In this document: one piece after another, positions 6,550-42,244 of the stretch
How the letters are laid out: each line of letters starts with the position of its first letter
Numbering within the stretch: the stretch's first letter is position 1
From: an uncultured bacterium
GTDB taxonomy: Bacteria > Chloroflexota > UBA5177 > JANWHV01
Direction: 5' to 3'
NCBI GenBank assembly: GCA_963729625.1
Contig: CAVSOU010000020.1
Location: 1 to 52,080, forward strand
DNA: 52,080 nt
Notes under the pieces: generated by a model
The model's database searches: none
What the model saw: only the letters and a program-made list of their open reading frames with translations
Told to the model about the DNA's origin: nothing
Translations under genes and position numbers: made by a program

Positions 6550-6578
6550 AGTATATTACAGTACTGTTATAAACTCAA
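6550..6578 (-). promoter_or_regulatory. sigma70-type promoter of the DUF4258/DUF2283 pair with palindromic operator
   Basis: minus strand TTGAGT-17 bp-TATACT; spacer contains palindrome ACAGTACTGT (6558-6567). Confidence 0.7.
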
Positions 6579-6823
6579 GAGACACCCGGCACTGCCGGTG
6601 GACGTTTGGCCGGCCGGCCCCGCCCCCCGGGGTTGCTGGCCGCGCGCGCCTCCGCCACCCATGCCGGCTTCACCAAATGAGGTCGGTTCTTGGCTTGGCC
6701 AAACTGCACACTCCGCAACTGCCCGGCCAGGATCATCTGGCGCAAGCGCGCGGCGCTGATGCCGTAGCGTCCGGCAGCCTCCTCCAAGGTCATGTACTCG
6801 TCGTCTTTGCCTTGCGCATCCAT
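6575..6823 (-). CDS. excisionase-like helix-turn-helix protein
   Basis: YMTLEEAAGRYGISAARLRQMILAGQL pattern with C-terminal GRGRP hook; start codon uncertain. Confidence 0.8.
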   Translation of the reverse strand: MDAQGKDDEYMTLEEAAGRYGISAARLRQMILAGQLRSVQFGQAKNRPHLVKPAWVAEARAASNPGGRGRPAKRPPAVPGVS

Positions 6824-6889
6824 TGGCAGCGTTTCTTGCGGCTCTGTGAGTAATGTCTCCAGTATCGACTGTTCCCGCGCGGACGGCAA

Positions 6890-7110
6890 GAGCGTGACAC
6901 CTACAGGCCTCCCTTTGTCGGCCCCCGTAGTGGCTACGCGCGCAGGCCCGCGCCGCTTCGGTCAGAGCCTCCAGCTGCGCAAGCACGTCGGCCGGACCCT
7001 CGCCCATGCGCCGGCGCACGGCCTACAGCGCGGCGATAGCGCCGATCGCAGGCTGCCAGGTGCGCGATCAGTCGAGACCACTCCTCGTCGGTCGGGACTC
7101 GCACAGCCAT
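6890..7110 (-). pseudogene. frameshifted paralog of the N-terminus of the 7113-7436 gene
   Basis: LIAHLAACDRRYRRA then RRMGEGPADVLAQLE in another frame; matches LIGQLAACDRRYHRA..RRTGEGGADVLAQLE. Confidence 0.5.
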
Positions 7111-7112
7111 GC

Positions 7113-7436
7113 TCACGACCCTCCCCCGCCGGCACCGCGCTCGCGCGTCAGGCAATCACCGCTGTGCCACCCGCGACAATGATCGCACCACCGCAGATCG
7201 GCGTACACCTTCTGCGCCTCGTCGTGGCCGCATCGATCCGTGCAGAACCTGCTGCCCTTCCGGTTCACCCGCCAAGCGGGGATCGGCTTGCCGCAGTGCA
7301 AGCACGTCGGACGCTCCAGCTGCGCGAGCACATCGGCCCCGCCCTCGCCGGTGCGCCGGAGCAGGCTAGCCGCGCGATGGTAGCGCCGATCGCAGGCGGC
7401 CAGCTGCCCGATCAAGCCTGCCCACCCCTCCGCCAT
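7113..7436 (-). CDS. hypothetical Cys/His zinc-binding protein
   Basis: CLHCGKP..FCTDRC and CDHCRGWH motifs; start overlaps the upstream stop. Confidence 0.65.
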   Translation of the reverse strand: MAEGWAGLIGQLAACDRRYHRAASLLRRTGEGGADVLAQLERPTCLHCGKPIPAWRVNRKGSRFCTDRCGHDEAQKVYADLRWCDHCRGWHSGDCLTRERGAGGGGS

Positions 7437-7738
7437 CAGTGCTCTCGCAGAAACGCCGCGTCGCGCCGCCCGCGCAGATCGCTCGCCCGTCTCTTCGCCT
7501 CATCCACAGTGGAGCCGAGTACCAGCGCGCTCAGCTCGCTGAGCGTGTACGCTGCCTCATCGCTGTAGTACGAGAATAGCGTGTGCCGCGTGGCGTCGTC
7601 GGCAACACCGACGACCTGGACGTAGCCGTAGACCGGCTGCGTGCCGGATCCCTCGTCGCGCACGGTGATAGGCTCCCAGTCCGCGAAGTCCGGCGTGGCC
7701 GTGCCTGTCCGCTCGATCGCGATGATCCGTGTTGCCAT
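7436..7738 (-). CDS. hypothetical protein (100 aa)
   Basis: GAGGAG RBS, operonic packing, protein-like composition. Confidence 0.6.
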   Translation of the reverse strand: MATRIIAIERTGTATPDFADWEPITVRDEGSGTQPVYGYVQVVGVADDATRHTLFSYYSDEAAYTLSELSALVLGSTVDEAKRRASDLRGRRDAAFLREH

Positions 7739-7844
7739 AGTGCTCACGCTCCTCTCCATGGTCTCTCTGCTGCCCTTCCTCGTCCCCCGCCAGCCCGGCC
7801 TGTACCAGCCACTGTACCGCTGCTCGGGTTCGCTCGGTGGCACG

Positions 7845-8123
7845 TCAACGCTTTCTGGCCTGCTCCTTTCGGCTCATACGGGGGGGCCGGCGTGGGAGTT
7901 GCTCCTTGGCGGCCACAAAGGCCCTGACCGCCTCCATATGGGCGCATGCCGGGTTCTTGACGCTCGGTGAGCAGCCGCATTCCCACTCCTCCGCGGGCCG
8001 GAGCGGCGTGCCGATCCACCCGATGCCGTGCAGGACCGTATAGCCGTCAACGGTGTAGCGCGTCGCCGTCGTGGTCAGCGTACGGAATGACTCGTGCTGC
8101 GTGATGCGTGGTGCTCTCTTCAT
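7845..8123 (-). CDS. SWIM zinc-finger protein
   Basis: WECGC-x8-CAH motif; ATGA overlap with the upstream gene. Confidence 0.7.
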   Translation of the reverse strand: MKRAPRITQHESFRTLTTTATRYTVDGYTVLHGIGWIGTPLRPAEEWECGCSPSVKNPACAHMEAVRAFVAAKEQLPRRPPRMSRKEQARKR

Positions 8124-8401
8124 GCTTCCCCCCGGTCTGGGGCAGCCGCCGCGTCATACAGCTCTGCCCGGCAGTCCTCGCAGAAGTCTGCGACGGCCAT
8201 GCACGCGGAAGCCACCTGCAGGCTGCGTACACCCACGATCGCGCCGTGTTCCTCGCACACCACCGCGTACGGCTCGCCGTCGGTGTCGATCCCCTGGGCC
8301 TCAGCGAGGTAGGTCGTCATCACACGGCCGGTGAGGCTGTTCGCGCGGCACAGCTTCACGCCGGCAAGGTTGCGCTTGATCTCGACCACCGTTGTGCTCA
8401 C
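8120..8401 (-). CDS. hypothetical phage/plasmid-type protein with CEEH / CEDC motifs
   Basis: GTGA overlap with the upstream gene; possible Zn ligands CxxH and CxxC. Confidence 0.6.
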   Translation of the reverse strand: MSTTVVEIKRNLAGVKLCRANSLTGRVMTTYLAEAQGIDTDGEPYAVVCEEHGAIVGVRSLQVASACMAVADFCEDCRAELYDAAAAPDRGEA

Positions 8402-8586
8402 GCTACACCCTCGACTTCCAGCACCTCGTACCCGGTACATTCGCTGGCTCGCCACGCCGCTTCCCAGTCCTGCGCCGGCGCAACCATCAGAGCCAGATCG
8501 GTGGCGGCATCCGCGTCGGCTGCCTCGACCTCGACGATCGTGCTGACCGTGGTGAGCTGCTCAATGGTTACCTGATAGATCGGCAT
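8398..8586 (-). CDS. small acidic protein, DpnD/PcfM-like pattern
   Basis: YQVTIEQ...IVEVEAADADAA..LA; AGGAGG RBS. Confidence 0.6.
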   Translation of the reverse strand: MPIYQVTIEQLTTVSTIVEVEAADADAATDLALMVAPAQDWEAAWRASECTGYEVLEVEGVA

Positions 8587-8682
8587 TGCATCCTCCTGGT
8601 AGCTGGCCGAATCTGAACGCATCGCCCAAAGTAGCCGCCGGCTGCCCCCTGTCGGACAACCGGCGGCGTGCGTGTCATCCTC

Positions 8683-9150
8683 TCAGAAGGGAATGTCGGA
8701 ATCGTCCTCGAAGTCATCAACTGGCGTGGTCTGCGCTCCCCGCCCCCCTCCCGGTGCGTTGTGCGTCCCCGTGCCGGCGCCGAACTCGGGCTGGTCGTCG
8801 AGCGCTCCCTTGGGCGTGAGAATCTGCATCTCGTCCATGGTCACGTCGAGCGAGAACCGCTTCTGCCCGTCGTTGCCGACGAACTCCCGTGTGCGCAGGT
8901 CGCCGGAGACGAACACCGCCATGCCCTTCTTGAGCAGGTCGTTGACCACTTCGGCCTGGCGCCGCCACGCGCTGACGCGGAACCAGGTAGTTATCTCCTC
9001 CGGCTGTGCGCCCTCGGTGGCCTGGGCGCGGCGGTTGTGCTCGTTGACCGCCACGCTGAACGACGCGACGGGCGTGCCGTCCGTGGTGAAGCGCATGACC
9101 GGATCGCTGCCAAGGTTCCCGATGATGAAGATCTTCTTGAGGTTTGCCAT
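8683..9150 (-). CDS. ssb: single-stranded DNA-binding protein
   Basis: IIGNLGSDP, FSVAVN, TTWFRVSAW, LKKG..VFVSG.L, acidic tail ending DSDIPF; AGGAG RBS. Confidence 0.97.
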   Translation of the reverse strand: MANLKKIFIIGNLGSDPVMRFTTDGTPVASFSVAVNEHNRRAQATEGAQPEEITTWFRVSAWRRQAEVVNDLLKKGMAVFVSGDLRTREFVGNDGQKRFSLDVTMDEMQILTPKGALDDQPEFGAGTGTHNAPGGGRGAQTTPVDDFEDDSDIPF

Positions 9151-9303
9151 CTGCCTTCTCCTTTGCCTTCTCGCCGGGTATGCCGCTGCCGCCGGCTTCG
9201 TCAGTGCCAATAAGGTGGTTGTCCTACGCCCGAATCCGCTCGCGCTCTCCTGCCTTTCCAGCCGGAATGGCGTCCGGCTCCCCTTGCCGGGATACGGCCG
9301 CGA

Positions 9304-9594
9304 TCAGTACTCGTCCGGCCTCAGAATGCACGTGTCCGAGGCCTCACCGTCCACGATGTTGGTGATGATCCACAGCCTGGACCCATCTGCCAGCACGTAG
9401 GCGCTGAGCACGCGGCCACTGCCGACCGCGATGTCCTGCCGATTGGCCTCTGCGTCAGCCTCGCTCACGTCGCCGAAGTCGCCGGCAATGTGGCGCTCGA
9501 TCAGTTGAGCGGCGGTCTTGCCGTTGGCGTTCAGATCGTCGAGCGCACCGGGCGTGGCCACGAGCTGGCCCAGGCCGAAGAGTACGGTGCTCAT
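9304..9594 (-). CDS. conserved plasmid/phage small protein (xxTPGA...ILxPxEY family)
   Basis: LFGLGQLVATPGAL, RHIAGDFG, RVLSAY, LWIIT, TCILRPDEY. Confidence 0.8.
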   Translation of the reverse strand: MSTVLFGLGQLVATPGALDDLNANGKTAAQLIERHIAGDFGDVSEADAEANRQDIAVGSGRVLSAYVLADGSRLWIITNIVDGEASDTCILRPDEY

Positions 9595-9845
9595 GCTGAT
9601 CGCTCCTCTTCCCGCCGGCTGGTTATGCGGCGATAGCCTCTGTGTGTGCGCCGCAGTTGCGTCACCTTGTCGTTGTGCTCATGGCGTGCCCGGAAGCGTG
9701 CCCAGCTCAGCGCCCGCAAGGCGTCGCGCGCCGTGGTGATCACGCGGCAGACCTCGCAGTCGTTTTCGATGGTGCGCAGTGCTGCGTCGAGTTGATCGGC
9801 CAGTGCCTGGGGAAGCCTCTCCCTGCTCGTCGTCGGTGTCATCAT
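9591..9845 (-). CDS. hypothetical protein (84 aa)
   Basis: ATGA overlap with the next gene, GGCAGGAG RBS, CEVC motif. Confidence 0.55.
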   Translation of the reverse strand: MMTPTTSRERLPQALADQLDAALRTIENDCEVCRVITTARDALRALSWARFRARHEHNDKVTQLRRTHRGYRRITSRREEERSA

Positions 9846-9920
9846 CTCCTGCCCCCTCCATGGGCCGGCCAGGGTGCCCGCATTCGGGTGTCCCCAACCG
9901 GCCCTACACTCGTCGCCGTC

Positions 9921-10313
9921 TCAGGCGTCGCAGAACACCTCGTGCATCGGGTCGGCCTTGGCCATGCCGCACACGGGGCACGTCGCCGGCACATGCCTTG
10001 GGTGTCGCGGCCTGCGACTGCGGGCTTCACGGGCTGCACTGCGTACACCCGGTGCTGGCGGGCGAAGATGCCGGCAGCGAGATGTTTGCACGTCCGGTCG
10101 TGCTGGCCTGCGAGGCAATTGCACACGAGGTCCTGGGGGCGGGCACCAAGAACGGTGAGGCGGTACGGCTTGGCCGTCCACACGCCATCGACGACGACGG
10201 CCACGCCCAGCGTGTTGCTGTCGAGGCGATACACCACAACGCGCTCAGCCGTAGCGCGGTCGAAGGCACGGGTAAGGCGTTGCGGCTTGGGGGGAGAGTG
10301 CCGGTGTTGCCAT
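9921..10313 (-). CDS. SWIM zinc-finger protein, first gene of module B, apparently with two frameshifts
   Basis: CNC-x8-CKH motif; ATG at the end of the leader repeat is out of frame by one base near a C6 run; CPVC-containing tail lies in another frame. Confidence 0.65.
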
Positions 10314-10539
10314 GTACGTGAACCTCCGGGTTCGACTTGAGCGGCTCCATCTTCTTGGTCGGGGAGGGAGCCGTTCGGCTTTCGGTAGGGCACCATCTCG
10401 CTCTACCTGGTACTATTGTACTGCTATACCAGTATAATGTCAATGCCTTTTCCGGGTCAAATATGGGCAAATATCGACTAATTTGCAGATACTAGCCTGA
10501 TAGGACGATGGCCTCTATTCCCCCGCCTGTCCTTTCGGC
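10311..10539 (-). repeat. ~230-bp direct repeat, copy 1 (promoter + 5' leader + start codon)
   Basis: near-identical to 13991-14215; first 72 bp identical. Confidence 0.97.
10415..10443 (-). promoter_or_regulatory. near-consensus sigma70 promoter with overlapping operators
   Basis: TTGACA-17 bp-TACAAT; CTGGTA-N14-TACCAG inverted repeat and GTAC-N4-GTAC overlap the -10 box. Confidence 0.85.
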
Positions 10540-11093
10540 TTACCCCCCGCTGTGGTTTGTGTGTCCCCCCGTGTGGGTGCGTAGGTCCGCAATACGCGAT
10601 CCAGGACGTTCGGGTTCGCACCACAGTGATCGGCAATCGTCCGCAGATCATCCGCGAAGGATGGGTGTGCCGGATCCGGCCGCTGGTACAGCCGGAGCAG
10701 GGCGAGATCGTCGGCTCTCATGCCCAGCATCTGGGCCATCTCAGACCCGCTGAGCTGCTCGGCAGTCTGCCAGCGCGCCAGCACATAACCGACAAACGCT
10801 GGATCGTCGGTAGTACGTGCGGCCAGCACGGTCACCCGGCCTTCATCGAGCAGCCCCTTCATGCCGGCCGGCGCCACATATGCCGGCAACAGTGGCCGTG
10901 GGTGCGCGCGCGCGCGCTCCATCAGATACCGGTGCAGCTCGCCCCGCGTCACCACCCAATCCCGGCCTAGCTTTCGTGCGCTAATACGCCCTCTGTAGCA
11001 CTGCGCTTGCAACCCGTCAGCATTCAGGCCCGTAAGCTGGGCAGCTTCAGCCAGTATCAGCAAATCGTCCGCGCGTGGTCGTGTCTCTGCCAC
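10515..11093 (-). CDS. two-domain DNA-binding protein (excisionase-like HTH plus XRE-like C-terminal part)
   Basis: LILAEAAQLTGL...GRISARKLGRDWVVTRGEL; second part LSGSEMAQMLGM..DDLALL. Confidence 0.8.
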   Translation of the reverse strand: MAETRPRADDLLILAEAAQLTGLNADGLQAQCYRGRISARKLGRDWVVTRGELHRYLMERARAHPRPLLPAYVAPAGMKGLLDEGRVTVLAARTTDDPAFVGYVLARWQTAEQLSGSEMAQMLGMRADDLALLRLYQRPDPAHPSFADDLRTIADHCGANPNVLDRVLRTYAPTRGDTQTTAGGKPKGQAGE

Positions 11094-11168
11094 GGCTCTT
11101 CCCTTCCGGCGCAGTGGAGCACCGGCAGATTGGCGCCCACCTCTCCGCCGGTGCCCCCACGCCTGTAT

Positions 11169-11312
11169 CTATCCCTCGTCGTCTTCCTCGGGCTCGTCTT
11201 CCTCACCTGTCGCCTCGTCGAGAGGCGCCAGCAGATACCATGGATCGATCGTACACGTACCGAGCCCGGAAGTCACCTCATCATCGTAGTACTCATCGCC
11301 TGCGTACATCAT
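11169..11312 (-). CDS. 47-aa highly acidic protein (absent from the ORF track)
   Basis: MMYAGDEYYDDEVTSGLGTCTIDPWYLLAPLDEATGEEDEPEEDDEG; GGGGGAGG RBS; paralog at 12199-12351. Confidence 0.75.
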   Translation of the reverse strand: MMYAGDEYYDDEVTSGLGTCTIDPWYLLAPLDEATGEEDEPEEDDEG

Positions 11313-11333
11313 GGTCCCTCCCCCTGGCTGAAC

Positions 11334-11802
11334 TCACCGCGCGGCCGGCGTGATGTAGGCGACATACTCGTGCTTGGTTCCCTGGATGGTCTCGAAGGCG
11401 CCTACCTCCTCGATGTGCAGCAGCCCGTCCAGCGTGTCCTCGTAATGTCGAGCAGCGACGCCTGGCGCGTCCAACCATCGTGCTCGGCAGCGTCGTAGGG
11501 CACGTCGTGCACGGGAAACAGGGTCAGGTGGTGCAGCACGCCGTTGATCTCCAGCGAGGCCAGGTAGCTGCTGCCGGCCTCCTCTTCCACGTTCGGCTCC
11601 AGCTCGCCGACCTTGACCGTGAGCTCGGGCACGTCCAAGGGCTCGGGATGCATCGCCGTCTGCAGCTCCTGCGTGATGGTGTTGAGCACCGCCCAGGCCT
11701 TGTCCGTGTCCGTGTGTACTCGGCGTGCGCGCATGCCCTGTCAAACTCGGCGATCCGGCTGACGATCAGCCTGCCCACGTGGGCGGGTATGCCTCTCTCC
11801 AT
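11334..11802 (-). CDS. acidic hypothetical protein, split by frameshifts
   Basis: three overlapping protein-like segments (MERGIPAH.., ..SLEINGVLHHLTLFPV.., ..EYVAYITPAAR) in different frames; AAGGAAGG RBS. Confidence 0.5.
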
Positions 11803-11839
11803 GGTCCTGCCGTTCCTTCCTCTGCAGTGCTGTTCTCTC

Positions 11840-12144
11840 TTAGCTGCTCACGGCGACGGGCCGCGCCGGCTCACACAGCAGCGGCGTGCCGGGCTCAACC
11901 TGCGCGAACAGGTTGTGCGCCCGCCGATGCCCGCCGGCCACCGCACGCCAGTGCGTGTCCTGGTCGGCCCAAGCCTCCCGCGCGGCGGCGCTGGTGCTGG
12001 CACGCGCCAGCGCTGTGCGCACTCAGCCACCATGTCGGCCCAGGTGGCCAGCGTATACGTGTCGGTGACGCCGGCATGCAGCGAGACATACCGCGCATGC
12101 ACGCGTACGAAGTCCTTCAGTTTGCCCGTGTACGTGCGTGCCAT
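11840..12144 (-). CDS. hypothetical protein, probable frameshift near 12010
   Basis: GAGGTGAGG RBS; MARTYTGKLKDF.. continues as ALARAST.. in another frame. Confidence 0.5.
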
Positions 12145-12198
12145 CGCCCTCACCTCTCGGCCGGATTTGCCGCCGGCCCCGGCCTCATTGCGTGGTGG

Positions 12199-12351
12199 TT
12201 ACCTGGTGGCGTCTGTCAAATCGTCCTCTGCCTCGTCAAGCTCTTCGTCCTCGCCTGCCTCGTCGATGGGCGTCTGGGCGTACCAGGGATCCATCGTGCT
12301 CAGCCCACTGGTGATGTCGTCGTCGTAGTACTCATCGCCTGCGTACATCAT
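12199..12351 (-). CDS. 50-aa highly acidic protein
   Basis: MMYAGDEYYDDDITSGLSTMDPWYAQTPIDEAGEDEELDEAEDDLTDATR; AGGAGG RBS. Confidence 0.75.
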   Translation of the reverse strand: MMYAGDEYYDDDITSGLSTMDPWYAQTPIDEAGEDEELDEAEDDLTDATR

Positions 12352-12404
12352 GATCGCTTCCTCCTGGCCGGTTTCGCCGCCGGCCCCGGCTTCTGGTCGC
12401 GACG

Positions 12405-13263
12405 TCAGGCCGCGAGTCTCTCGCTGTTCGCCTGCTCGGCAGCCACGCCCAGGATCCGATCGACGGCTCGCTGCGCCTTGCCGGCGGCCGACACGATCAG
12501 CGACACGTCGCCCTGCAGCCTGTCGATCCACGAGCTGATATAGGCGGCGCTCTGCTCCATGGTCGAGTGGTCGATCCCGCACTGGCTCGCCAGCATGGCG
12601 GCGCCGATCTCCGCGATCAGCTCCTCCTTGCTGTAGCTCTCGCTGGCAAAGATCGTGCTGTCCGTGCCGTCGAAGCGGTCCAGGCGCGTCTTGTGGCCTG
12701 TGCTGTGCATCAGCTCATGGTTGAGCACGTTGTAGAAGGCTTCCACCTGCGGGAACTGGCCCATGGTGGGTACGACGACCGTGTCCGCCGTCGGCATGTA
12801 GTACGCGCGATCCTGGTGCAAGCTGCAGCACCTTGGGGCCGTCCACGTAGCCGGCAACGATGGCCTCGGCCTCCGCGATCGGCTCGTGCTCGACCGGTGC
12901 CGCCAGCTTGCTGGGGATGCCCTCCACGTCGGCCAGCGCGAAGACGTTGTAGTAGCGCAGCAACGGGATCGCTCCCCGCTCGTCCCGGTCCTCGGTCGCC
13001 TCGCGTGCCGGGAGAAGCCTGTAGAACACCACAAGGTGCGCGTGGCTGCCCCGCTTGATCCGGCCGCCCAGATCCTGCACTTGCCGGAACGTCAGGTACT
13101 CGCCGCCCTGCGGCAACAGCAGCGTGTTGATGCCCCGGTACGGCTTGCGGCTGACATAGTTGATCGCTCCATCCGACACCCACGGGCGGTGCCAGGGCAC
13201 CACGCCAGCCTGCAGCTGGGCAATGATTCTCTCGGTGACGATGCCGGCGACGTTGTTTGCCAT
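12405..13263 (-). CDS. ardC: antirestriction protein ArdC (ssDNA-binding domain + zincin metalloprotease), one frameshift near 12825
   Basis: IIAQLQAGVVPWHRPW, YRGIN, YLTFRQ, YYNVF; C-terminal half HELMHSTGH, YSKEELIAEIGAAML, SAAYISSW. Confidence 0.93.
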
Positions 13264-13318
13264 CTCTCCTGCTCCCCCGCCGGGATGAGCCGCCCGGCCC
13301 GGCCTTCACGCGTGGGTG

Positions 13319-13993
13319 TTAGTTGTCCCGGCCGGCGCACGTCGGGCCGATGCCGCTGGCGATGCTCTCGGGCGTGGTCAGCGTCCGACCGCACACCATG
13401 CACCGCCCGGATGCCTGCGCGTAGGCGAAACCGTAGGCGTGGCGCTGCTCGCCGTCGGCCGCCAAGAGTGCCCGGAGCGCGCGCACGATGCGGGTATCCT
13501 GCGCGAACCGTTTCCACACGCGGGGGCTGCCGTCGGTCGCGATAAACGCGAAGGCGATGTAGTCGGTGGTGTTGACCGGGCCGGCAAGGTACTCGGCCAT
13601 GGCCGCGATGCCGGGCTTGTCGTCCTCGGGGCGGATACGGATCGTCACGTAGTCGTCGGCGCTGTTGGACAGGGTGTAGATGCCGGTCGCCGGCAGCGAC
13701 ACGGGAGCGACCTGGCGGGATGTCTCGACCGTCGTCTGCTGCTCGCGTACCACCTCGGCCTTGAGGCAGTTCAGCACGGCGGCGGCCTGGCGAGGAGAGA
13801 GTCCCCACACCGCGCGCTGGCGCATCTCGCACATGAATGGGAAGCGGCCGGTGTAGCCGCTCGCGTACTCCGTCGCTACTTGGGCGAGTTCCGGCGTCTC
13901 GGCCACGTGGGCGTCGCTGAACTTCTCGGCATCCCCAAGAGCCAGGAGGAAGTCTTGCGGGGTGATCTGATGGTTGGCAAGTACTGGTACCAT
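13319..13993 (-). CDS. DUF6011-domain protein, first gene of module A
   Basis: C-terminal GRCMVCGRTLTTPESIASGIGPTCA; ATG is the last 3 nt of the leader repeat. Confidence 0.85.
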   Translation of the reverse strand: MVPVLANHQITPQDFLLALGDAEKFSDAHVAETPELAQVATEYASGYTGRFPFMCEMRQRAVWGLSPRQAAAVLNCLKAEVVREQQTTVETSRQVAPVSLPATGIYTLSNSADDYVTIRIRPEDDKPGIAAMAEYLAGPVNTTDYIAFAFIATDGSPRVWKRFAQDTRIVRALRALLAADGEQRHAYGFAYAQASGRCMVCGRTLTTPESIASGIGPTCAGRDN

Positions 13994-14215
13994 GTACGTG
14001 AACCTCCGGGTTCGACTTGAGCGGCTCCATCTTCTTGGTCGGGGAGGGAGCCGTTCGGCTTTGGTAGGGCGCCATTCGCTCTACCTGGTACTATTGTACT
14101 GCTATACCAGTACAAAGTCAATACATTTTCCGGGTCAAATATGGGCAAATATCGACTAATTTGCAGATATTAGCCTGCTGGGAGATGGCCTTATTCCCCC
14201 GCCTGTCCTTTCGGC
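13991..14215 (-). repeat. ~230-bp direct repeat, copy 2
   Basis: aligns to 10311-10539; promoter TTGACT-17 bp-TACAAT at 14093-14121. Confidence 0.97.
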
Positions 14216-14657
14216 CTGCCCCCGGTGTGGGATCTGCCTCGCCCGCGCCTGGTCCGCCGGCGCCTCGTGTGTCCGACCATAGGCGTGCCACTGCACGCGT
14301 TCGTCTCGCCACGGCAGAAGACCATACCACGCTGCATCAGAATCGGCCCGCACTTTCCGCGTAGCGCGCCCTGTGGCCGTCAATTGAGTCCGCCGTTTCG
14401 GCGCCTCGTCAAGGAGCTTGCGACGATGACGATGGCGGCCGATACGGCATCCGCTTGCATACGTCTCGCCACGGACCAACGAGCCGCGGCGGCCCGAGCG
14501 TAGCCGGGCCTCGGCGGCGGCGAGTCAGCGGCCATGCTTGAGCATGGGCATCCCTGTTAGGCTGCCGATCGCCACGGCTCCCGCAGCCTTTGCGTGTAGC
14601 GTGAGGGCCAGCTCAAGATGATCCGGGTCGCTAGACGAAACGGACATTAAAGTACGC

Positions 14658-15265
14658 TAAGGGCTCGTTAAGCAATTAGTTCCTGATTTGAGTCTGGCGC
14701 GGCCGGGCACGTGGCAACCCCTGATCGGGACGAGAGTGTGTAGTTCCACTTGGTGTAGATCTCATGCTTGGTCAACTGCAAGGCGTCCATGTCGGCATCG
14801 GGGACGGAGCGGCCAGTCGGGTAGTCGCCCTCCAGGCGCACTGCCTGCACCGCCAGGCCCGTGCTGGTCGTGGTGCCGCGGATGTAGGCGAGCATGGTCT
14901 CGAAGGTACGCAGGGGCTTGCCTGCCCAGTTGAGACTGATCGGACCGAACAGGCGATGCTCCACCGGGTTCCACTTCGAGCAGCCAGTGGGGTAGTGGCA
15001 GACGGTCACCGTGAGCCCCAGCCCGTCGCACAGCTGCTCCTGCAGTTGCTGCTTCCACAGGCGGTTGCGACAATCATTGCTGCCACCGCCATCGGCCAGG
15101 ATCAAGAGTTCCCGGGCGCCGGGGAAGCGGGCCCGGCCGTCGGTCTGCCACCACTGGGCGATGGCCGTGACTGCGAACGCCGCCGTGTCTCCCGAGGAAC
15201 CGACGTAGACCGTGCCCCGGTTGTGCTGCAGGTCGTAGACGCCATAGGCGGCGTCGGGCGGTTGA
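14658..15265 (-). mobile_element. ISAzo13-family transposase, 3' remnant with probable right end
   Basis: YGVYDL..N.G.V.VG.S.DTAAFAV, LLILADGGGSN, HYPTGCSKWNPVEHRLF, WNYT; N-terminal half absent. Confidence 0.88.
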
Positions 15266-15266
15266 C

Positions 15267-18200
15267 TCACACCGACACCTCTGCAGTGCCGACCGTCGAT
15301 CCCAATAGGGTAGTGCCCAGGGGACCGTAGTACACCCAAGGCGCCCACGCTGCGGCGCCGACCACAGATGGCGTGAGTGTCGCGCGACACAAATCCCGAG
15401 TTGCGATTTCCCACGCGGTGAGGAAGGGCAAAAGGCGGTCCTTGTTGCTTTCGTCTCCCTCGGTGGCCTGACGGGAGTCTCTCAGCGCTTGCTTCCACGC
15501 CTCGAGTGCACGCGGGACTGCCGCCCAGCTCATCTGGCTTAGCTCAAGCTGTGTCCGGCGCATGGATTCTGCCACGGGCATATCAAACGCGTCAGCCAGT
15601 TTCCCATACAGGGTGTCCAGCAGGAGTGCCGCCAGTAGGTCGTCGACGAGTGCCGTGGTGGCGATGACGGCAGTCGCGCCCGCCAACAGACAGGCCTGTA
15701 CCAAGCCGTGCAACCCTTGTGCTTCGTCGTTCAAGCGTCCATCTGCCGCCGACCCCTGCCGCGTGGTAGACGTGCCTAGCGCTGCGCCGGCGGTGCGGCA
15801 GCCATGGAGAATGACGACCGTGCCAGGCAAGACGCAGCGCAGGACATCTGTCACGGTCAGCGGGCCATCAGCCAGCATGATGCCAGTACGGTGCGGCTCT
15901 TCGTCGTTCTGGACGCTGTGACCAGCGATCACTAGCAGCCGGACCTGCGCGGCCAGTTCCTGCACCTGATCCAGGCTTGCCTCCCTATCTATACGAACAT
16001 GCGCCACAGCGCCGGGACACACGCCGCGCAATCGTTGGCTCCCAACTAGGGCCGCGACCTCGGTGAGCGGGGCAGGATCTGCCCATAGGTGCCAGGAGGG
16101 CAGTTCAGGCCATGAGTCTCCCACAGTGACCACGTTGCCATACGCCACAAACGCGAGCGCATTGGGGTGCATCGGGCTGGCTAGTGCTTCCGTTACATGG
16201 CTGGTGTCGCTTACGGGCGCTGTCGACGACTGGGTGTTGTAGGAACTTGGAGTAGCGCAGCGCTGCCCCAGCCTGGGCAGGAGGGCGCCCTGCGGTAGAT
16301 GGGCAATCGTCAGATCCGTGCCGCCGACCCCGCTTGCATACGCTGCCGCTGCAACCGGCGCCTCCAGCAGGGATGTATCTAGACTTAGATACATCCTGCG
16401 GATGCCCTGGCGCCGTATTTGCTTCGTCCAGGCTGGGCCGGCCAACGATTCCCAAAGACCGTTCAGGGCTACGGGAATGCCCTCGTCTCGCGCGGGATGC
16501 CGGACAGATCTCGCGTGAGTCGGGCTCTTTCGCCCCTCTGTTACCCAGGGCAGGGACAGACGCGCATCCTCGACCAACCGCGTAGCATGCCTGGCGGCGG
16601 CTAGGAGGTGATCCTTGTTGGGTGGCAGACTAGGTGTGCGCCCTGCCCATCGTGGAAGGCCGCGCCACCACCGGCCGAGCCTTGACACGACCGTCTCCGT
16701 CTTTAGCGTCGTATCGGCAGTACACGCAAAACGGCGTGGCGGCGCCAGCAGTCCCCGCGGCCCCAGCAGAAAGGCCACCAGACCCAGTGGCGTCTCCACT
16801 ACCTCTAGCAGCACTGCCTTGTCCCCGGCCAGGGCCTCGCACACGTCCGCCATTGCGACACCCGCTGGCAACGCCGCGCCCTGCAAAGGGCACGACTGAC
16901 GGCCATCGGCAGCGAGCTGACGAACCGCCCGATCGAGGAAGCTCCCAGCTAGAGAGAGTACGGCAATCTCTCGTGCGCCAACAGCTGCCCAAAGCTGTGC
17001 CTGCGCATCCTCGGTGGCATACAGCGCGCGGAGTGCCTCCTTGCGTTCTACGTCCTCTTCCCCCAGATCCTGTAGTGCTGCCCACTGGGCTACCCACCGA
17101 CCGCGGAGTTGTGCAAGCTGGTCTGTTTCCTCTCGTGTCAGGTAGCGCAGTAGATCAATCTGCTGCACGCCGACGAAAAGGTCAGCAAACGTGGCGCCTT
17201 TGGCTACCTGGCCTAGCACGTAGGCGCGTTCAGCATCCGCTTCGGCGTAGCGCCAACAGGCGCGCAGGGCATAACGTTGGGCCTTAGCGCTCAGGGAAGG
17301 GGGCGCAAGGCCCCACCGATATTGCCATCGGCGCTGCAGCACCGCCGCTTGGCGCCGGTAGAAGAGATAATCCCGCCAATTCAGCACCTCGGGCCGCTCG
17401 CATACGCTAGCCGCTGCGAGCGCGGCCTCCGCAGCACGTTGCTCGTGCTCGAGAATGCTATGGTCCTCGATTGACTGACGATAGTGATAGAGGGCATCTG
17501 GCCATTGTTCCAGTTCGGCGTATGCTGCGCCCATGTCGAAGTGACAGATGGCTAGGCGCTCACTCATCTCATCCTGCTCAAGGATGTCGCACGCTACACT
17601 AAAATGCTCAAGTGCGGCGAGGGGGTCTCCATTCGTGACGAAGATAGTCCCAGCAGCGAGGGCGCAGCGAGCGACGTTCCCCCGATCCCCTGTACTCTCA
17701 GCCTCCTGCCGAAGCTCTGTGATCAGCTGCAGCGCCCGGCCGCGCTGCCCTTGCCGAGCCAACGCCGTGGCCATGAGAACCTTGCAGTCGTAGACGAGCG
17801 AGGGCCGATGTTGCGCTAGGATTGGAAGCGCTTCCACACAGTACCGAAGCGCATGGTCAAACTGCTTCAGCCCGATCATCGCTCTTGCCAAATGATAGGT
17901 GCAACTCACCATGTCGTCCGGTTGCTGCAACCGCTCCAGTTCGTCATGGGCGCGGGCAAGGCGTCGTACCGCCTCCTCAAGGAGGCCCATATCTATAAGG
18001 CACATGCCGGCGATGCGCTCGCAGTCCGCCGCTTGGTACTCGAGCCCGAGCTCCTTCCACAGTTCACGCGCTCGTTTCGCCTCTCGGGATGCCTCTCGAT
18101 ACCGGTTCAAGTACCAGAGGCTACGGGCGAGATTGTCGCGCGTTCTTGCTTCGTTCTCCTTTGGTCCGTGAATCGCAAAAAAGGTGGCTGCCTGCATACA

Positions 18201-19196
18201 GTGCTGAGCCGCCGTCTCGAACTGTCCGAGGTTGCATAGAATTCCTCCACTAAACATGTAGCAATCATGTATTTTAGGCGCGTTCTGCTCTGGGTCGAAC
18301 AGCGAGAGGGCTCGCCTACAGCAACGCAAGGCCAGTCGTGGTCGGTCCAGGCTTGCGAGCGTCTCAGCGGCTCGATAGAGGGACTCCGCAGCGTCGTTCC
18401 ATGCCTGGCGGCGTTGGAATAGTCTGGCAGCCCAGTAAAGACGGAGGATTCCCAGACGATGAGCATGCACCGGATATCCCGGGATAGTCAGCAGGTGACC
18501 TATCTCGTAGTCGCATTGTGCCGCAGCAAGCGGTTGTTGGGAGCTGAGATAGATGCTATGTGCCCGCATACAACGAAAGACGGCCTGCTGCCAGAGGTGC
18601 TGTCTGATTAGTAGAGCCCCTGCCAGTTGATGACAGTACGCAGCCTCGAGAAGCAACTGCTGATCCGCGAACAACCGGCGCGCCGTGTCGAGTCGGCGAA
18701 GAGCGGCCGGGAGATTCTCGAGGTTGAAAAGCAGGCCGGCGGCATGCCGATGGCACCAGGCGACACTCGCCAATTCATCCTGGCCACAACGATGGAGCAT
18801 GTGGCGAGCGCGATTGTACAGGCCAAGCCCGGATCTGTGGTTCCCCTGGAGTTTTTGCGCCTGTGCCATCTGGAAGGTGCAGTGCGCTACGTCGCGTTGG
18901 CACACGACGCCTCGACGCCCAAGGTCTCTGAAGGCGTTGCGCGCTAGTTCGAGCCGCGCATAGGCCTCCTCCGGTTGATTGCAGTTGAGGAGTGCTCGGC
19001 CAGCATAGAAATCCACCGTGGGGCTGCTCCCCCCATCCAAAGCGAGCGCAGCCTTTGCCGCATCGAGCAACCCAAGCGCACGTGTAGGCTCTTCCTCCAA
19101 CAGGCCGGAGGCTTCGCGGCAGAGTTCTGCCAGCCCGTTCTCCTTCCGGAGGAGGGCCGCCAGTGCCCCTAAGTCAACTTCGTGGGACGTAGCCAT
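15267..19196 (-). CDS. TPR-CHAT caspase-like protease, paralog 2
   Basis: long TPR-like array, then CHAT motifs LLVIAGHS, VVILHGCRT, GLVQACLLAGATAVIA, WAPWVYYG; ATG 1 nt after the upstream stop. Confidence 0.9.
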   Translation of the reverse strand: MATSHEVDLGALAALLRKENGLAELCREASGLLEEEPTRALGLLDAAKAALALDGGSSPTVDFYAGRALLNCNQPEEAYARLELARNAFRDLGRRGVVCQRDVAHCTFQMAQAQKLQGNHRSGLGLYNRARHMLHRCGQDELASVAWCHRHAAGLLFNLENLPAALRRLDTARRLFADQQLLLEAAYCHQLAGALLIRQHLWQQAVFRCMRAHSIYLSSQQPLAAAQCDYEIGHLLTIPGYPVHAHRLGILRLYWAARLFQRRQAWNDAAESLYRAAETLASLDRPRLALRCCRRALSLFDPEQNAPKIHDCYMFSGGILCNLGQFETAAQHCMQAATFFAIHGPKENEARTRDNLARSLWYLNRYREASREAKRARELWKELGLEYQAADCERIAGMCLIDMGLLEEAVRRLARAHDELERLQQPDDMVSCTYHLARAMIGLKQFDHALRYCVEALPILAQHRPSLVYDCKVLMATALARQGQRGRALQLITELRQEAESTGDRGNVARCALAAGTIFVTNGDPLAALEHFSVACDILEQDEMSERLAICHFDMGAAYAELEQWPDALYHYRQSIEDHSILEHEQRAAEAALAAASVCERPEVLNWRDYLFYRRQAAVLQRRWQYRWGLAPPSLSAKAQRYALRACWRYAEADAERAYVLGQVAKGATFADLFVGVQQIDLLRYLTREETDQLAQLRGRWVAQWAALQDLGEEDVERKEALRALYATEDAQAQLWAAVGAREIAVLSLAGSFLDRAVRQLAADGRQSCPLQGAALPAGVAMADVCEALAGDKAVLLEVVETPLGLVAFLLGPRGLLAPPRRFACTADTTLKTETVVSRLGRWWRGLPRWAGRTPSLPPNKDHLLAAARHATRLVEDARLSLPWVTEGRKSPTHARSVRHPARDEGIPVALNGLWESLAGPAWTKQIRRQGIRRMYLSLDTSLLEAPVAAAAYASGVGGTDLTIAHLPQGALLPRLGQRCATPSSYNTQSSTAPVSDTSHVTEALASPMHPNALAFVAYGNVVTVGDSWPELPSWHLWADPAPLTEVAALVGSQRLRGVCPGAVAHVRIDREASLDQVQELAAQVRLLVIAGHSVQNDEEPHRTGIMLADGPLTVTDVLRCVLPGTVVILHGCRTAGAALGTSTTRQGSAADGRLNDEAQGLHGLVQACLLAGATAVIATTALVDDLLAALLLDTLYGKLADAFDMPVAESMRRTQLELSQMSWAAVPRALEAWKQALRDSRQATEGDESNKDRLLPFLTAWEIATRDLCRATLTPSVVGAAAWAPWVYYGPLGTTLLGSTVGTAEVSV

Positions 19197-19197
19197 C

Positions 19198-22100
19198 TCA
19201 GCCTGACACTTTCTCCGGGGCGACATTCGACTGTGAGAGAGTCACGTCGAAAGGGCCGTAGTAGATCCAGGCCGACGACGCTGTCATGCCCGGCACGGCC
19301 GACGCCAGTGCCGCATGGTCGAAGCTACGTATCTTCGCCTCATTCGATTCCAGAGCCTTCACCAGCGGATCCTCCCCACCCTCCTTCTCGATCACGCGAC
19401 CGCTGCTTTTCACGATCTGCTTCCATCCAGCCAAGGTGTCTAGGACTGCCAACCAGCTCATATGGCTGACGTGAAGCTGGGTCGAGCGCAGGGACAGCGC
19501 TACCGGCTGATCGCCTGCTTCCGCCAATGTTCCACACAGCCTGTCCAACAGGAGCGCCGAGTGCAGGTCATCGACCCGTGCCGTGCTGGCGATTACGGCG
19601 GTAGCTCCGGCCAGTAGGCACGCCTGGACCAGTCCCTGCAGCCCGGGTGCTGCGACAGACAGGCTCCGGTCTGTCCGGGCCACTTGCCGCGGAGCGGCCG
19701 TACCCGGTGCCGCGAAAGAGGTCCGGCAGCCATGCAGAATGACGATGGTACCGGGTAGGACGCAGCGCAGCATGTCGCTTGCGGTGAGCGGACCATCTGC
19801 CAGCAGTATGTTGGTGCGAAGCGGCTGTTGATCATCCGGGTGACCATGCCCGGCGATTACGAGCAGTCGGGACGAGGAGGCCAGGCACTGCACCTGGTCC
19901 ACAAGGGCTTCCTTCCCCACACGCGTCCGCACCCCGCCGGCGGGCAGCGCCTGTCCCAAGCGCCGGCTTCCGGCAATGGCCGCCACCTCCGTGAGCGGCA
20001 CCGCGGGTTCCCACAGCTGCCAGGATTCCAGATCGGCTGACGATGTTGAGTCGGCAAAGACATTGCCATTCGCCACGAAGGCGAGCACATCGGCACGCGA
20101 GGTACCGGCCATCGATTCGGTTGCCTGATTCCCATCGTGGTTTGCAGACGCCGGCGCGCGTGTGCCGGAGCCCGCCGCTTCGGAGCGACGAGCCAGCAGC
20201 CTGGGTAAGAGCGCGCCCTGCGGAAGATGAGCGATAACGAGATCTGCGCCACCGATTCCGCTTGCATAGGCCGCGGCTGCAATCGGTGCCTGGAGCAGTC
20301 CAGCGTCCATGCTGAGGTAGAGCTTGCGAATGCCGCGGCGCCGCAACAAACTCGTCCAGGCGCGACCGGCCAGGCACTCCCACAGCGCGGCCAGCGGTGC
20401 ATCGAGGTCGTCGCCTCGGCCGGGTTGCTGAGCAGCGCCTGCACACGCGGCCTCCTCGCTTCTCACGGCTACCCAGGGCAAGTTGAGACGAGCATCCTCT
20501 ACCAGCTTCGCAGCAGCCACCGCGGCAGCGAGGAGTTGATCGAGATCACCCGTTGGCTGTGTGCGTCGCGCCATCCGTCCAAGCTTGCCCCACAGCCGGC
20601 CGCGTGCGGTAGCATGTTGCTCACCCGCCCAGTCTATGTCGCCGGCATGGGCGAAGCGGCGCGGCGGCGCCAACAGCCCATGCGGCCCCACCAGGAAGAC
20701 GACCATCCCTAGTGGCGTCTTGACCAATTCCAGCAGTGCCTCGTCGTCGGCTAGCGCTTCGGATACGCTCGTGACGGCAAAGCTCGCCAGCAGCCCTGCG
20801 GTTCGCGGAGTATGCGCCCTGCCACCGGCGGCCGCGAGCCGGCGTATCGTATCGTCGAGGAAGCTCCCGGCCAGAGAACACAGCGAAAGCTCACGTGCGC
20901 CGGCCGCCCGCCAGATCCGGTCCTGCACGACCTCAGTGCCATCCATAGCGGCGAGGAGGGTCGTGCGGTCAGGGTCATCAGTGGCTAGCTCCTGCAGTGC
21001 AGTCCACTGCGCTACCCATTGATTGCGCAACGTCTGAAGCTGACCTCTCTCGTCGGCGGTCAGGTAGCGCCGCAGATCGAGATGCTGAGCACCTCCGAAG
21101 AGGTCGGCCAAGGCGGCGGCCTTGGCTACCTGGCCCAACGCGTATGCGCGCTCAGGACCCGGATCGGCCGAGCGCCAGCACGCACGCAGGGCGCCAAGCT
21201 GAGTGCTGGTACCCAGGGGCGGAGGGGCGAGTCCCCAGCGATGTTGCCAGCGTCGATGCAGGATCCCGGCCTGCTGCCTGTAGTAGAGCGCGCGTCGTCG
21301 ATCACTCACGCTGGGATGCTCCGCCACGCGTGTTGCGATTTCTGCGGCCTCCGCAGCCTCATTCTCGCGTTCAAGGCTGATCCATCCCTCCATGGCTTGA
21401 TGCAAATGGCTCAGGGCGAGTGGCCAGTCTGGCAATTCGCTGTACGCCCTTCCCATCGTTTGGTGACAGGAGGGCAGACTCCCGAGGTCTGCGGTTCGCT
21501 CATAGAACTGAAATGCCGCACGAAGATGCTCAAGGGCTGCGCGCGGATCTCCCCCAGCAAGCAGGATTACTCCGGCGGCTTGGTTACAGGCAGCGATATG
21601 CTTGAGATCGCCTGTTTGCTCGACCTGTCGTCGAAGTTCCGCCAACAACTGCAGCGCGCGACCGCGCTGGCCCCTGTTAGCGAGCGTCATTGCGAATTCG
21701 AATTTGCACTCGTGAACACGCTGGGGCATATGTTCGGCCAGGACGGGAAGCGCGGTCTGATAACAATGGAGTGCCGAATCCAGATGCCCAAGGGCCGCTA
21801 ACGCCGTCCCCAGACGGTAGGCGCATTCCGCCGCACAGCCAAATTGCTCCAACTGCTCCAGTTGGCGCTTGGCCTCGGCCAGGCGCGGTACAGCCTCCTG
21901 CGGACGGCCCATTTCGATGAGGCAGACACTGGCGACGCGCGCACAATCGGCCGCTTGGTGTTCGTCCTCCAACTCATGCCACAACTCGCGCGCCCGTTCG
22001 GCTTGCGGCAGGGCGGCTCTATGCCGCGTGAGCTGTGCCAGGCTGACGGCAAGGTCCCTGCGTGTCCGCGCCTCGCTCACTTTCGGACCATGGAGTTGGA

Positions 22101-23211: not shown

Positions 23212-23290
23212 GGTGTTGTACTCCAGTCGCTGCTTGCAGCCGTCAACCGCCCGGAGTCCCACGGCCCTTGTCACGGCAGCATGACCTGCC

Positions 23291-24955: not shown

Positions 24956-25988
24956 CGGTCAACTCCGCCAACCTCGCCACGGAAGGACCTGCCTTTTGCA
25001 ACAGCTTCTTAAGGATGCGCTCTGCCTGTTCCCCGCCAGCTGATGACCTATACTCTTTCTCGGCCCAACCGAACCAGGTGACAACCGGAGTGACGGCTTC
25101 GACAACGTCATGGGGTACGTAGAGCTCTCCCATCACCTGCTTGTAGGTTCGAGCAAGAGGGGGGAAGACATCGAAGTTCCCCGTATTCAGTTGTGACTCG
25201 ACGTACTGATCATATTCTTCCTTCGCTCTCTCGAGTTGCTGGTTGATGCCGTAGTACGTTATGAGACACTGAAGAGCAGCCGTATCCTCGGGATCCGCAT
25301 GTATCACTCCTAGGAGATAGGATTCCAATTGTCCGTCTGCCCCGCGTTGTCCGCCTGGATCTTGCGCCGCCGTCGCCAGAAGAAGCTTCCGCCACTCCTT
25401 CTTGAGTAGCGTCTGACGAGCTGCAATCGTCCCGACATAACTACCGTCGGGAAGATACTCCTGTTGCCAACCCAGCGCGAGCGCGGCATAGCAAGCAGTC
25501 GGATCGCTTCCGGCCTTGTTCAGTTGTCTGACATACTTCCACACGTCCAGCCATTCTCCCTCCTGGAAACTGTCATCCATAGAGGGTTCGTGCACCTCGG
25601 TTGCTCTCTTGGCGCAGCCTGGCACACAGAACATGATGATGTCCTGGCAGTAGTGGACGTACCGATAGCCACCGTCGCCAACCAGATGCCTATTGGCCAA
25701 CTCATACAACGCCTCACGCTTCGCATGAGGGAAGTCGACTGAAGAGTTCGGTGCATGGCGTTGAGCTGAGGGCGGTCTCTTTGTTACCTCACGTATCGAC
25801 TGGATTACTTCCTGCCTGTCGACACGCGGATCGAGCCGACAGGGGTCGAGCGTGAGTCGGCTAACGGCGACCATGAGCAATTCTTTAAGTGCCCAAGCCC
25901 TGCCAAAGTCTACCCGTCGTGGTCCTTCGGCATCGTCAAGCGTTACCACGAACTTGCCAAGCGTTCTCACAGTCAAGCCAGGATGCAT
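24945..25988 (-). CDS. divergent SARP/AfsR-type regulator (OmpR-like HTH + BTAD)
   Basis: LTVRTLGKFVV start, WLDV, AALAL...EYLPD, DPEDTAALQCLITYY...A...Y; GAGGGGAG RBS. Confidence 0.7.
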   Translation of the reverse strand: MHPGLTVRTLGKFVVTLDDAEGPRRVDFGRAWALKELLMVAVSRLTLDPCRLDPRVDRQEVIQSIREVTKRPPSAQRHAPNSSVDFPHAKREALYELANRHLVGDGGYRYVHYCQDIIMFCVPGCAKRATEVHEPSMDDSFQEGEWLDVWKYVRQLNKAGSDPTACYAALALGWQQEYLPDGSYVGTIAARQTLLKKEWRKLLLATAAQDPGGQRGADGQLESYLLGVIHADPEDTAALQCLITYYGINQQLERAKEEYDQYVESQLNTGNFDVFPPLARTYKQVMGELYVPHDVVEAVTPVVTWFGWAEKEYRSSAGGEQAERILKKLLQKAGPSVARLAELTDGD

Positions 25989-27821: not shown

Positions 27822-27839
27822 CGTTAAGGAGTTGTCCGC

Positions 27840-33210: not shown

Positions 33211-33339
33211 AATTACCTCTCAGGTTGGTGACAATCCAGCATGTCAGCATGTCAACATGATGGCTCATGGCGTGTGGGCATGCTAGAAGGTTTTCCACGA
33301 ATCTCGGACTGAGTGTGAATTGATCGCCGGTCTGCATCG

Positions 33340-33372
33340 ATTTACTCTGGCGTGGACGGGAACCGTCCAAGA
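33340..33372. repeat. parS-like palindrome, copy 2 (upstream of parA)
   Basis: see 31648-31680. Confidence 0.7.
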
Positions 33373-42193: not shown

Positions 42194-42244
42194 AAACCCA
42201 TTTGCCAGAATTACGCCCGGAATGTGTACCCCATCCTCTGGCTC
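42194..42244 (+). repeat. probable IS right-end sequence, copy 1
   Basis: 26-bp TGCCAGAATTACGCCCGGAATGTGTA identical at 46269-46294, with similar flanks. Confidence 0.85.

Follow-up and report, generated by a model that had tools for sequence, protein, structure and literature searches.

Repeated control sequences upstream of separate operons are a documented shortcut to plasmid establishment and anti-defence genes, as excerpts of PMC8708921 describe for p576 and pLS20 and as the CUP repeats illustrate for IncN plasmids. CUP combines a promoter with an ArdK site at the 5′ ends of operons in the same orientation (PMC5371602 and PMC6289460, in excerpt), and the repeated strong promoters of the Bacillus plasmid p576, EGeRS2, are repressed by Reg576 and transiently de-repressed after transfer (PMC6294495 and PMC8708921, in excerpt). 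In plasmid leading regions, genes for SSB, anti-restriction proteins and toxin–antitoxin (TA) pairs cluster on one strand, according to the portions of PMC11541004 used here. Here we describe two near-identical direct repeats of ~245 bp on contig CAVSOU010000020.1 of an uncultured bacterium, each heading a module of small genes; the window analysed is the whole contig (52,080 bp), and all genes of both modules lie on its minus strand. We put at about even the chance that this is a CUP-like, repressor-controlled establishment regulon with a terminal helix-turn-helix (HTH) protein as delayed autorepressor, on a contig without transfer genes and with broken regulon genes. Such a regulon would be analogous in function to CUP and EGeRS2/Reg576 and homologous to neither.

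Two repeats with a shared control region and start codon

By repeat finding, MAFFT and local alignment, the two copies are identical in 230 of 246 aligned columns (93.5%), the 16 differences comprising 11 substitutions and five single-base gaps. Their similarity stops after ATGG, that is, at the start codons of A1 and B1, the first genes of modules A and B. A sequence-only reading of this DNA had placed the repeats at 10311–10539 and 13991–14215, with identity ending at the start codons of unrelated genes; its ATG ends are correct, its upstream ends are about 16 nt too short, and A1 and B1 indeed lack mutual similarity in an all-versus-all blastp comparison. Read 5′ to 3′ on the minus strand, the elements follow one another as the tail of A8 (the last gene of module A), an upstream dyad, the promoter, a dyad at the −10 hexamer, the leader and the ATG.

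10310–10555 (−): repeat copy 1, with promoter, operator-like dyads, leader, Shine–Dalgarno (SD) sequence and the ATG of B1
13990–14230 (−): repeat copy 2, with promoter, operator-like dyads, leader, SD and the ATG of A1
10443–10415 (−): promoter P1 in copy 1, TTGACA-17-TACAAT, 11 of 12 sigma-70 consensus positions
14121–14093 (−): promoter P2 in copy 2, TTGACT-17-TACAAT, 10 of 12 sigma-70 consensus positions
10460–10431 (−): second, overlapping promoter-like site, copy 1 only, TTGACC-18-TATACT, 10 of 12
10407–10432, twin at 14085–14110: dyad over the −10 and the predicted start, CTGGTA-N14-TACCAG, candidate operator
10462–10491, twin at 14138–14171: upstream dyad with 11–13-nt arms and an 8-nt gap, second candidate regulator site
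10314–10408 (−), twin at 13994–14086: predicted ~95-nt leader with three hairpins, the third containing the GGAGG SD

The near-consensus sigma-70 promoter expected in each repeat is present, and a promoter scan of 10 kb returned four promoter-like sites, where shuffled sequences averaged 1.0; the second site of copy 1 is missing from copy 2 because of two substitutions. In a scan of the contig, the dyad over the −10 was found only in the two repeats (2 matches vs. 0.01 expected), and the upstream dyad lies ~20 nt 5′ of the −35. If transcription starts ~7 nt past the −10, the leader has the ~95 nt previously proposed. The two leaders fold at −35.5 and −35.6 kcal/mol (z −2.5 and −2.6), values equalled by 4 and 2 of 200 shuffles, respectively. 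Rfam returned no match for the leader in the repeats at E ≤ 1 and none at gathering score across the contig.

The ATGs at 10313 (B1) and 13993 (A1) are both preceded by GGAGG-N9 and are true start codons, since the relatives of A1 and B1 start at the corresponding position. Those of A1 are 224 aa long, align with it end to end at 94–67% identity and share its starting residues; those of B1 are intact proteins of 128–129 aa, and their N-termini agree with the first 12 residues translated from the ATG at 10313.

Comparison with CUP, EGeRS2 and leading-region islands

We inspected CUP directly on R46, where its copies are 300–445 nt long and 90–100% identical and begin at 23209, 24550, 25760 and 27778, the start codons of ccgAI, ardA, ccgD and ardB. 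TTGACT...GATAAT stands ~75 nt 5′ of the ATG, SD and ATG are kept aligned before four different genes, and ardR is located within a CUP-headed operon. Like the CUP of IncN R46/pKM101, the present locus has direct repeats of at least 90% identity heading co-directional establishment or anti-restriction operons, and every repeat supplies a different first gene with its sigma-70 promoter, dyad-bearing leader, SD and ATG. In both cases a regulator gene lies inside a repeat-headed operon, ardR in R46 and, as candidates only, A8 or B11 (the last gene of module B) here.

There are also differences. Neither copy has DNA similarity to R46 (blastn, chance matches of 11–18 nt, E ≥ 0.47), and no alignment of A8 or B11 with R46 ArdK or ArdR was better than E 3.1. 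There are two copies of 245 nt here vs. four to five of 300–445 nt; near-identity runs through the ATG here, whereas it fades ~18 nt before it in R46; and R46 carries a MOBF relaxase and a type IV secretion system (T4SS) on the same replicon, neither of which is seen here. The CUP-like regulon of the sequence-only reading accordingly holds up in its anatomy (repeat-headed co-directional operons, promoter, shared ATG) but finds no counterpart in DNA or regulator homology.

On p576, too, conserved upstream sequences before ardC and other operons define the establishment regulon, and EGeRS2 is described, in the excerpts of PMC6294495 and PMC8708921, as a strong promoter with operators on its flanks for a plasmid repressor that is autoregulated. 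As given there, EGeRS2 copies are 50–68% identical, compared with 93.5% here, and a dual TTATCCC heptamer forms the operator, to which a ribbon-helix-helix (RHH) repressor binds, where this locus has candidate dyads of different sequence and HTH_17 candidates; no RHH domain was found by Pfam among the module open reading frames (ORFs). EGeRS1 of pLS20 differs in being described as 420–750 bp long and without a constitutive promoter. With the leading-region anti-defence islands of Samuel et al. 2024 (PMC11541004, in part) the modules share co-oriented genes for SSB, anti-restriction proteins, TA pairs and small unknown ORFs. What counts as such an island, however, is decided by how far the genes lie from oriT and on which strand, and Frpo single-strand promoters often drive it, whereas here no oriT was recognised and the promoter is an ordinary duplex one. 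The leading-region-type content that had been read from ssb and ardC was recovered: ArdC, SSB, TA pairs, the B3 family and small unknown ORFs are present and co-oriented.

Genes of the two modules

Each repeat copy is followed by 8–11 co-directional ORFs, and all genes from 14.0 down to 4.1 kb lie on one strand with coding GC3. Module A stands under copy 2 and module B under copy 1; two further gene pairs continue downstream.

13319–13993 (−): A1, 224 aa, intact, C-terminal DUF6011 (Pfam, 8.9e-15), first gene under P2
12405–13263 (−): ardC, ArdcN (2.1e-22) and MPTase-PolyVal (9.7e-32; both Pfam), frame-broken near 12815–12825
12199–12351 (−): A3, 50 aa, isoelectric point (pI) 4.1, 18 D+E and 1 K+R, paralogue of A6
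11840–12144 (−): A4, ~100 codons, apparent frame change near 12020
11334–11802 (−): A5, two breaks and three frames, a single 155-aa protein in relatives
11169–11312 (−): A6, 47 aa, pI 4.1, 17 D+E and 0 K+R
10515–11093 (−): A8, 192 aa, HTH_17 (Pfam, 2.3e-7; excisionase/AlpA-like), last gene of module A, candidate repressor
9921–10313 (−): B1, SWIM-motif/zinc-ribbon protein, first gene under P1, frame-broken
9304–9845 (−): B2 (84 aa, basic) and B3 (96 aa, pI 4.1, ‘plasmid related protein’ family)
8683–9150 (−): ssb, 155 aa, intact, acidic C-terminal tip, SSB (Pfam, 1.1e-29)
7113–8586 (−): B5–B9, five small ORFs of 62–135 aa, no family match
6934–7110 (−): B10, degenerate partial duplicate of B9 with an indel
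6575–6889 (−): B11, 104 aa, HTH (HTH_17 at 7e-4, sub-threshold; excisionase), last gene of the ssb module
6513–5989 (−): DUF4258/DUF2283 pair, downstream of module B and co-directional, followed by an unknown ORF
5731–4135 (−): VbhA-like antitoxin and VbhT-like Fic protein, downstream on the same strand

The content proposed for module A (DUF6011, ardC, small acidic genes, HTH) was identified throughout, the acidic genes being A3 and A6 and the HTH gene A8. For module B, ssb is secure and the HTH assignment of B11 is sub-threshold; the SWIM label of B1 has no Pfam match and, as for B7, rests on a CxC...CxH pattern spotted by eye that we take to be the SWIM motif. B9 is cysteine-rich, and a terminator-like hairpin lies at 6598–6586, near the end of B11. 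Several of the small ORFs offered as candidate defence inhibitors are broken or doubtful, and the small module ORFs have no further matches in Pfam, NCBIfam, PHROGs or PADLOC. That the modules are diverged duplicates of each other was considered and rejected: there is no protein similarity between them, and the paralogous pairs A3/A6 (71% identical over 34 aa) and B9/B10 each lie within one module.

The N-terminal part of ardC aligns with residues 13–140 of R388 ArdC and the C-terminal part, the HExxH peptidase, with residues 165–289 in another frame. The ssDNA-binding N-domain and metallopeptidase C-domain of the protein of the IncW plasmid R388 (PDB 6I89/6SNA) are thus recognisable (E 1e-13 and 3e-24), but the window gene is divided into two frames between them. 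The confidently predicted structure of A1 (AlphaFold, pLDDT 82.9) gave no Foldseek match in the PDB at E ≤ 0.001, and its profile against PDB sequences gave no match below E 0.7; B3 and A8 had no match among PDB sequences, and A8 none on plasmids by tblastn. The A3 family is tiny: a search of 1.84 billion representatives gave four matches at E ≤ 0.001, including a low-complexity match to a 725-aa protein. The VbhT-like Fic protein matches PADLOC PDC-S04 (2.6e-62), and the NCBIfam VbhT model over its N-terminal 190 of 419 positions, below the cut-off. The tail of the Fic ORF resembles out-of-frame text while a high-GC3 ORF (4547–4062) continues in another frame, a possible frame break.

Plasmid contexts of related genes

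The B3 family occurs on 120 plasmids, of which 50 are conjugative, 29 mobilizable and 41 non-mobilizable. In the four that we inspected, chosen from the top-15 list, the B3 gene is in every case co-directional with, and at most 9 kb from, genes for SSB and/or ArdC and/or type IV coupling protein (T4CP) and relaxase. On the Paenibacillus plasmid the B3 homologue stands immediately 5′ of an ArdC-like gene, and on the Shewanella plasmid 3′ of SSB and topoisomerase III. The Ralstonia array reads SSB, small ORFs, ArdC, small ORFs, B3, methylase and KleA, with T4CP further on. On the Xanthomonas plasmid the homologue lies 5′ of ParA, a Fic pair, T4CP and a MobF relaxase, the Xanthomonas Fic being 27% identical to that of the window (E 3e-18). 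On R46 and the Xanthomonas and Ralstonia plasmids, comparable genes read toward T4CP and relaxase. The corresponding side of the window is its left end, and the layout of those plasmids would place oriT, T4CP and relaxase there; what follows the modules on this downstream side is instead a Tn3-family element, whose transposase terminates the contig.

A B1-like protein (P0035) and an A5-like protein (P0046) are both listed on a 9,141-nt contig, which suggests a relative that keeps both modules adjacent. Further close relatives are encoded on contigs of 16,002 nt (P0038), 23,604 nt (P0006) and 107,665 nt (P0043). One B3-like atlas cluster is mainly from Planctomycetota, and the B3-like clusters are partly viral. 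As a separate observation, the Ralstonia plasmid pB1903 (3503–5550) has ArdC annotated in two pieces, ‘ArdC family protein’ and ‘zincin-like metallopeptidase’, with a fragment of DUF4158 (Tn3-type transposase N-terminal) between them.

Proposed regulation and the points that weigh against it

In the proposed regulon, the repeats would be the control regions of two establishment operons of a plasmid-type element, and an element-encoded dimeric DNA-binding protein would bind both dyads; the likeliest candidate for this repressor is the HTH_17 protein encoded by the last gene of either operon (A8 or B11). On entry into a repressor-free cell, perhaps by conjugation, both promoters would fire from the predicted starts and ArdC, SSB and the small proteins would be made, until expression of the distal repressor gene shut both promoters off, making the induction transient; the zygotic induction of the sequence-only reading is likewise purely inferential. 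The shared leader would supply the same SD and ATG to both first genes, and its third hairpin may set the level of translation.

A more ambitious and tentative form of this proposal, which we consider doubtful, is that the repeat is a portable promoter–operator–leader–ATG adaptor plugging interchangeable establishment operons into one repressor circuit in an uncultured high-GC lineage, possibly of Planctomycetota-associated plasmids. Homologous recombination in the leader would then swap or add cargo exactly at the start codon, and a repressor encoded last in each operon would serve as a built-in timer. Were this so, a whole set of anti-defence proteins specific to the lineage and as yet unknown would emerge from tracing the leader in relatives; the candidates here are A3 and A6 (both hyper-acidic), B3, and A1, B1, B7 and B9 as zinc-finger proteins. 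More generally, an establishment regulon that arose independently of the known ones and without homology to them, in a high-GC lineage that has been poorly sampled, would show convergent evolution of the architecture that such systems share, namely a strong promoter, an operator, a leader fused at the ATG and a regulator inside the regulon, and its leader would serve as a handle for new small anti-defence proteins in organisms without known ones.

Several observations weigh against the establishment regulon. The repeat is present in two copies only. Three motif scans match these two places and no third in the contig, two of them with 2 matches each against 0.01 and 0.00 expected; the search for further copies or relatives elsewhere was equally empty, since the repeat DNA is unmatched in PLSDB plasmids and in phages and a degenerate promoter/dyad motif has 0 matches in a genome contig collection. 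Beyond the repeat, megablast of 6–15 kb and 26–50 kb against plasmids gave chance-level matches only, of 129 and 41 bp. No relaxase, T4CP or T4SS was found in the whole contig at any threshold used, and no recognisable oriT; a search of unannotated large ORFs for a hidden relaxase or Rep at E ≤ 1 gave only weak winged-helix (wHTH), DnaD_N and RP-C hints in the ORF at 47472–48935.

The control region itself raises further objections. Its upstream edge falls inside the 3′ end of A8, as expected of a copied stretch of DNA and not of a tidy cassette. The longest identical run between the copies, 73 nt, barely exceeds chance (P 0.049), so their similarity could simply be young, and an extra constraint on the distal leader, considered on account of this run, was dropped because the same value is too weak to use. 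The SD lies within a hairpin, which is unexpected for the fastest possible expression. The dyads of the two copies are identical, but A8 and B11 have little in common (25% identity over 68 aa, E 0.009), and at most one of these two proteins can therefore be a shared regulator. HTH_17 proteins also include excisionases. An alignment search with DUF6011 found four distant loci in metagenome-assembled genomes at 29–36% identity, and the two examined (L002 and L004) both lie in phage genomes; the other two, L001 and L003, span 2.8 and 3.9 kb. Finally, the reading frame is disrupted in ardC, in B1 and A5 (twice each) and, outside the modules, in ParA.

Frame-broken genes

The frame switch of ardC lies between its two domains, near 12815–12825, so that ArdcN and the HExxH peptidase are in different frames and no full-length ArdC can come from the gene as sequenced. 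In B1 the frame set by the ATG is lost near 10277 and regained at ~10.0 kb, ahead of the C-terminal zinc-ribbon motif, and the two breaks of A5 lie at ~11.72 and ~11.44 kb. Outside the modules, the Walker-A segment of ParA (32427–33300, −; break at ~33.1 kb) is out of frame with the 230-aa ORF that holds the remaining ATPase, and a broken partition gene on a plasmid-type contig points to replicon decay or consensus errors.

The breaks lie outside homopolymer runs. Intact genes include two 4-kb CHAT-TPR ORFs, Tn3 tnpA, GH32, ABC transporter genes, ssb and A1. At five verified breaks per 7.4 kb, by our own arithmetic, ~5 would be expected in the 8 kb of CHAT-TPR genes and 0 were seen, which indicates that the breaks are concentrated. 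They may represent either real decay or local consensus error. Because at least three regulon genes are frame-broken and no transfer genes accompany them, the regulon in this contig looks like a damaged copy or, possibly, a decaying relic. Internal out-of-frame stretches also occur in relatives of B1 and A5 on independent contigs (P0043 and P0047), and disruption of such genes is thus not unique to this contig.

Alternative explanations

The likeliest of the rivals, though itself improbable, is a young segmental duplication or gene-conversion tract, by which recombination copied a strong constitutive promoter region and the A8 tail in front of the second block, so that identity reflects age and no repressor circuit exists. 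Such an event would be in keeping with two copies only, with their lack of matches in plasmid, phage or genome contig collections, with the marginal significance of the unbroken 73-nt run and with surroundings rich in insertion sequences (IS) and transposons. It is also favoured by the upstream boundary inside A8: the upstream 40 nt of copy 1 are the 3′ end of the A8 coding sequence (10515–10555), and the last ~10 codons and stop of A8 recur at 14191–14230, upstream of copy 2, without the remaining gene. A 5′-truncated ISAzo13-type transposase (14668–15498) adjoins this A8-tail remnant, which could be the leftover of a third module removed by IS activity. The downstream boundary, however, coincides precisely with the start codons of two genes that are unrelated and whose respective relatives begin at the same residue, an outcome that rarely follows from random duplication and that CUP repeats do display. 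Copying of this kind is also at odds with two separate dyads at classical operator positions and with an HTH gene ending each operon. As to the nature of the repeat itself, a transposon or miniature inverted-repeat transposable element (MITE) was rejected, there being no terminal inverted repeats by eye and no inverted repeats in 14200–14720.

Rather less probable is that the modules belong to a mobile element that does not conjugate (a phage-plasmid, a satellite or a degenerate integrative element, for instance) and serve as its early or anti-defence operons; the repeated promoter would then be an early one under a lysogeny- or AlpA/excisionase-type regulator, with no tie to conjugative entry. 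DUF6011 has matches in six PHROG families and relatives in T4-like and tailed-phage contexts, both A8 and B11 match excisionase-type models, the clusters resembling B3 are in part viral, and transfer genes are lacking from the contig. Yet the contig also has no phage structural or terminase genes, no integrase at any threshold used and no tRNA gene as an attachment site. It does hold ParA/ParB, and on plasmids ArdC and the B3 family adjoin T4CP and relaxase genes.

It is very improbable that the repeats are single-strand promoters of the Frpo/ssi type, which fold in the transferred strand and are transcribed before complementary-strand synthesis. Such elements precede ssb and anti-defence genes in leading regions, according to the portions of PMC11541004 used here, and the repeat has a −35, a −10 and an A+T-rich upstream stretch. 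This candidate was nevertheless rejected on its single-stranded folds, which are unremarkable (z −0.69, with 42 of 200 shuffles as good, and z −1.81, with 12 of 200), and the −35 and −10 hexamers are not paired with a complementary arm, a 6-bp dyad alone flanking the −10; the promoter is of the ordinary duplex type.

An assembly artefact, with the repeat arising from mis-joining or collapse in metagenomic assembly, hardly enters into consideration even for a metagenome-type contig with several frame breaks: the copies differ at 16 positions and have unique sequence on both flanks, the ATG junctions reproduce the N-termini of independent relatives, and A1, directly after copy 2, aligns end to end with a relative in one frame.

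Remainder of the contig

In addition to the modules, the contig holds ParA/ParB, a weak Rep-like wHTH ORF and sugar-utilisation genes, together with a Tn3-family transposase at the left end and ISAzo13, ISL3 and IS481-type remnants. The nearest plasmid relatives of ParB are on plasmids of Isosphaeraceae (Planctomycetota), at ~35% identity. A 40-nt repeat, 90% identical between its copies at 31641–31680 (within the 3′ part of parB) and 33333–33372 (just 5′ of parA), contains a GGACGG-N3-CCGTCC palindrome and is a candidate centromere (parS-like) site.

Two tandem paralogous genes for CHAT-protease/TPR proteins of 1319 and 1358 aa occupy 15267–25988 (−) together with a NACHT/AAA_16-like ATPase (554 aa) and a 347-aa unknown ORF that follow them, and DNA repeats recur there at ~3.92-kb spacing. 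This four-gene set looks defence-like, and 0 of 4 match PADLOC. At 26949–29057 (+), the G+C content reaches 0.71–0.72 across adjacent ORFs of 290 and 405 aa (GC3 0.87–0.89), neither of which matches Pfam, NCBIfam or PHROGs even at E ≤ 1. A gene for a HAF-repeat protein at 45183–46139 contains five to six internal tandem repeats of ~135–160 nt, and a 44-nt repeat (42194–42237 and 46260–46303; 93% identical) flanks the ~4-kb block that holds it.

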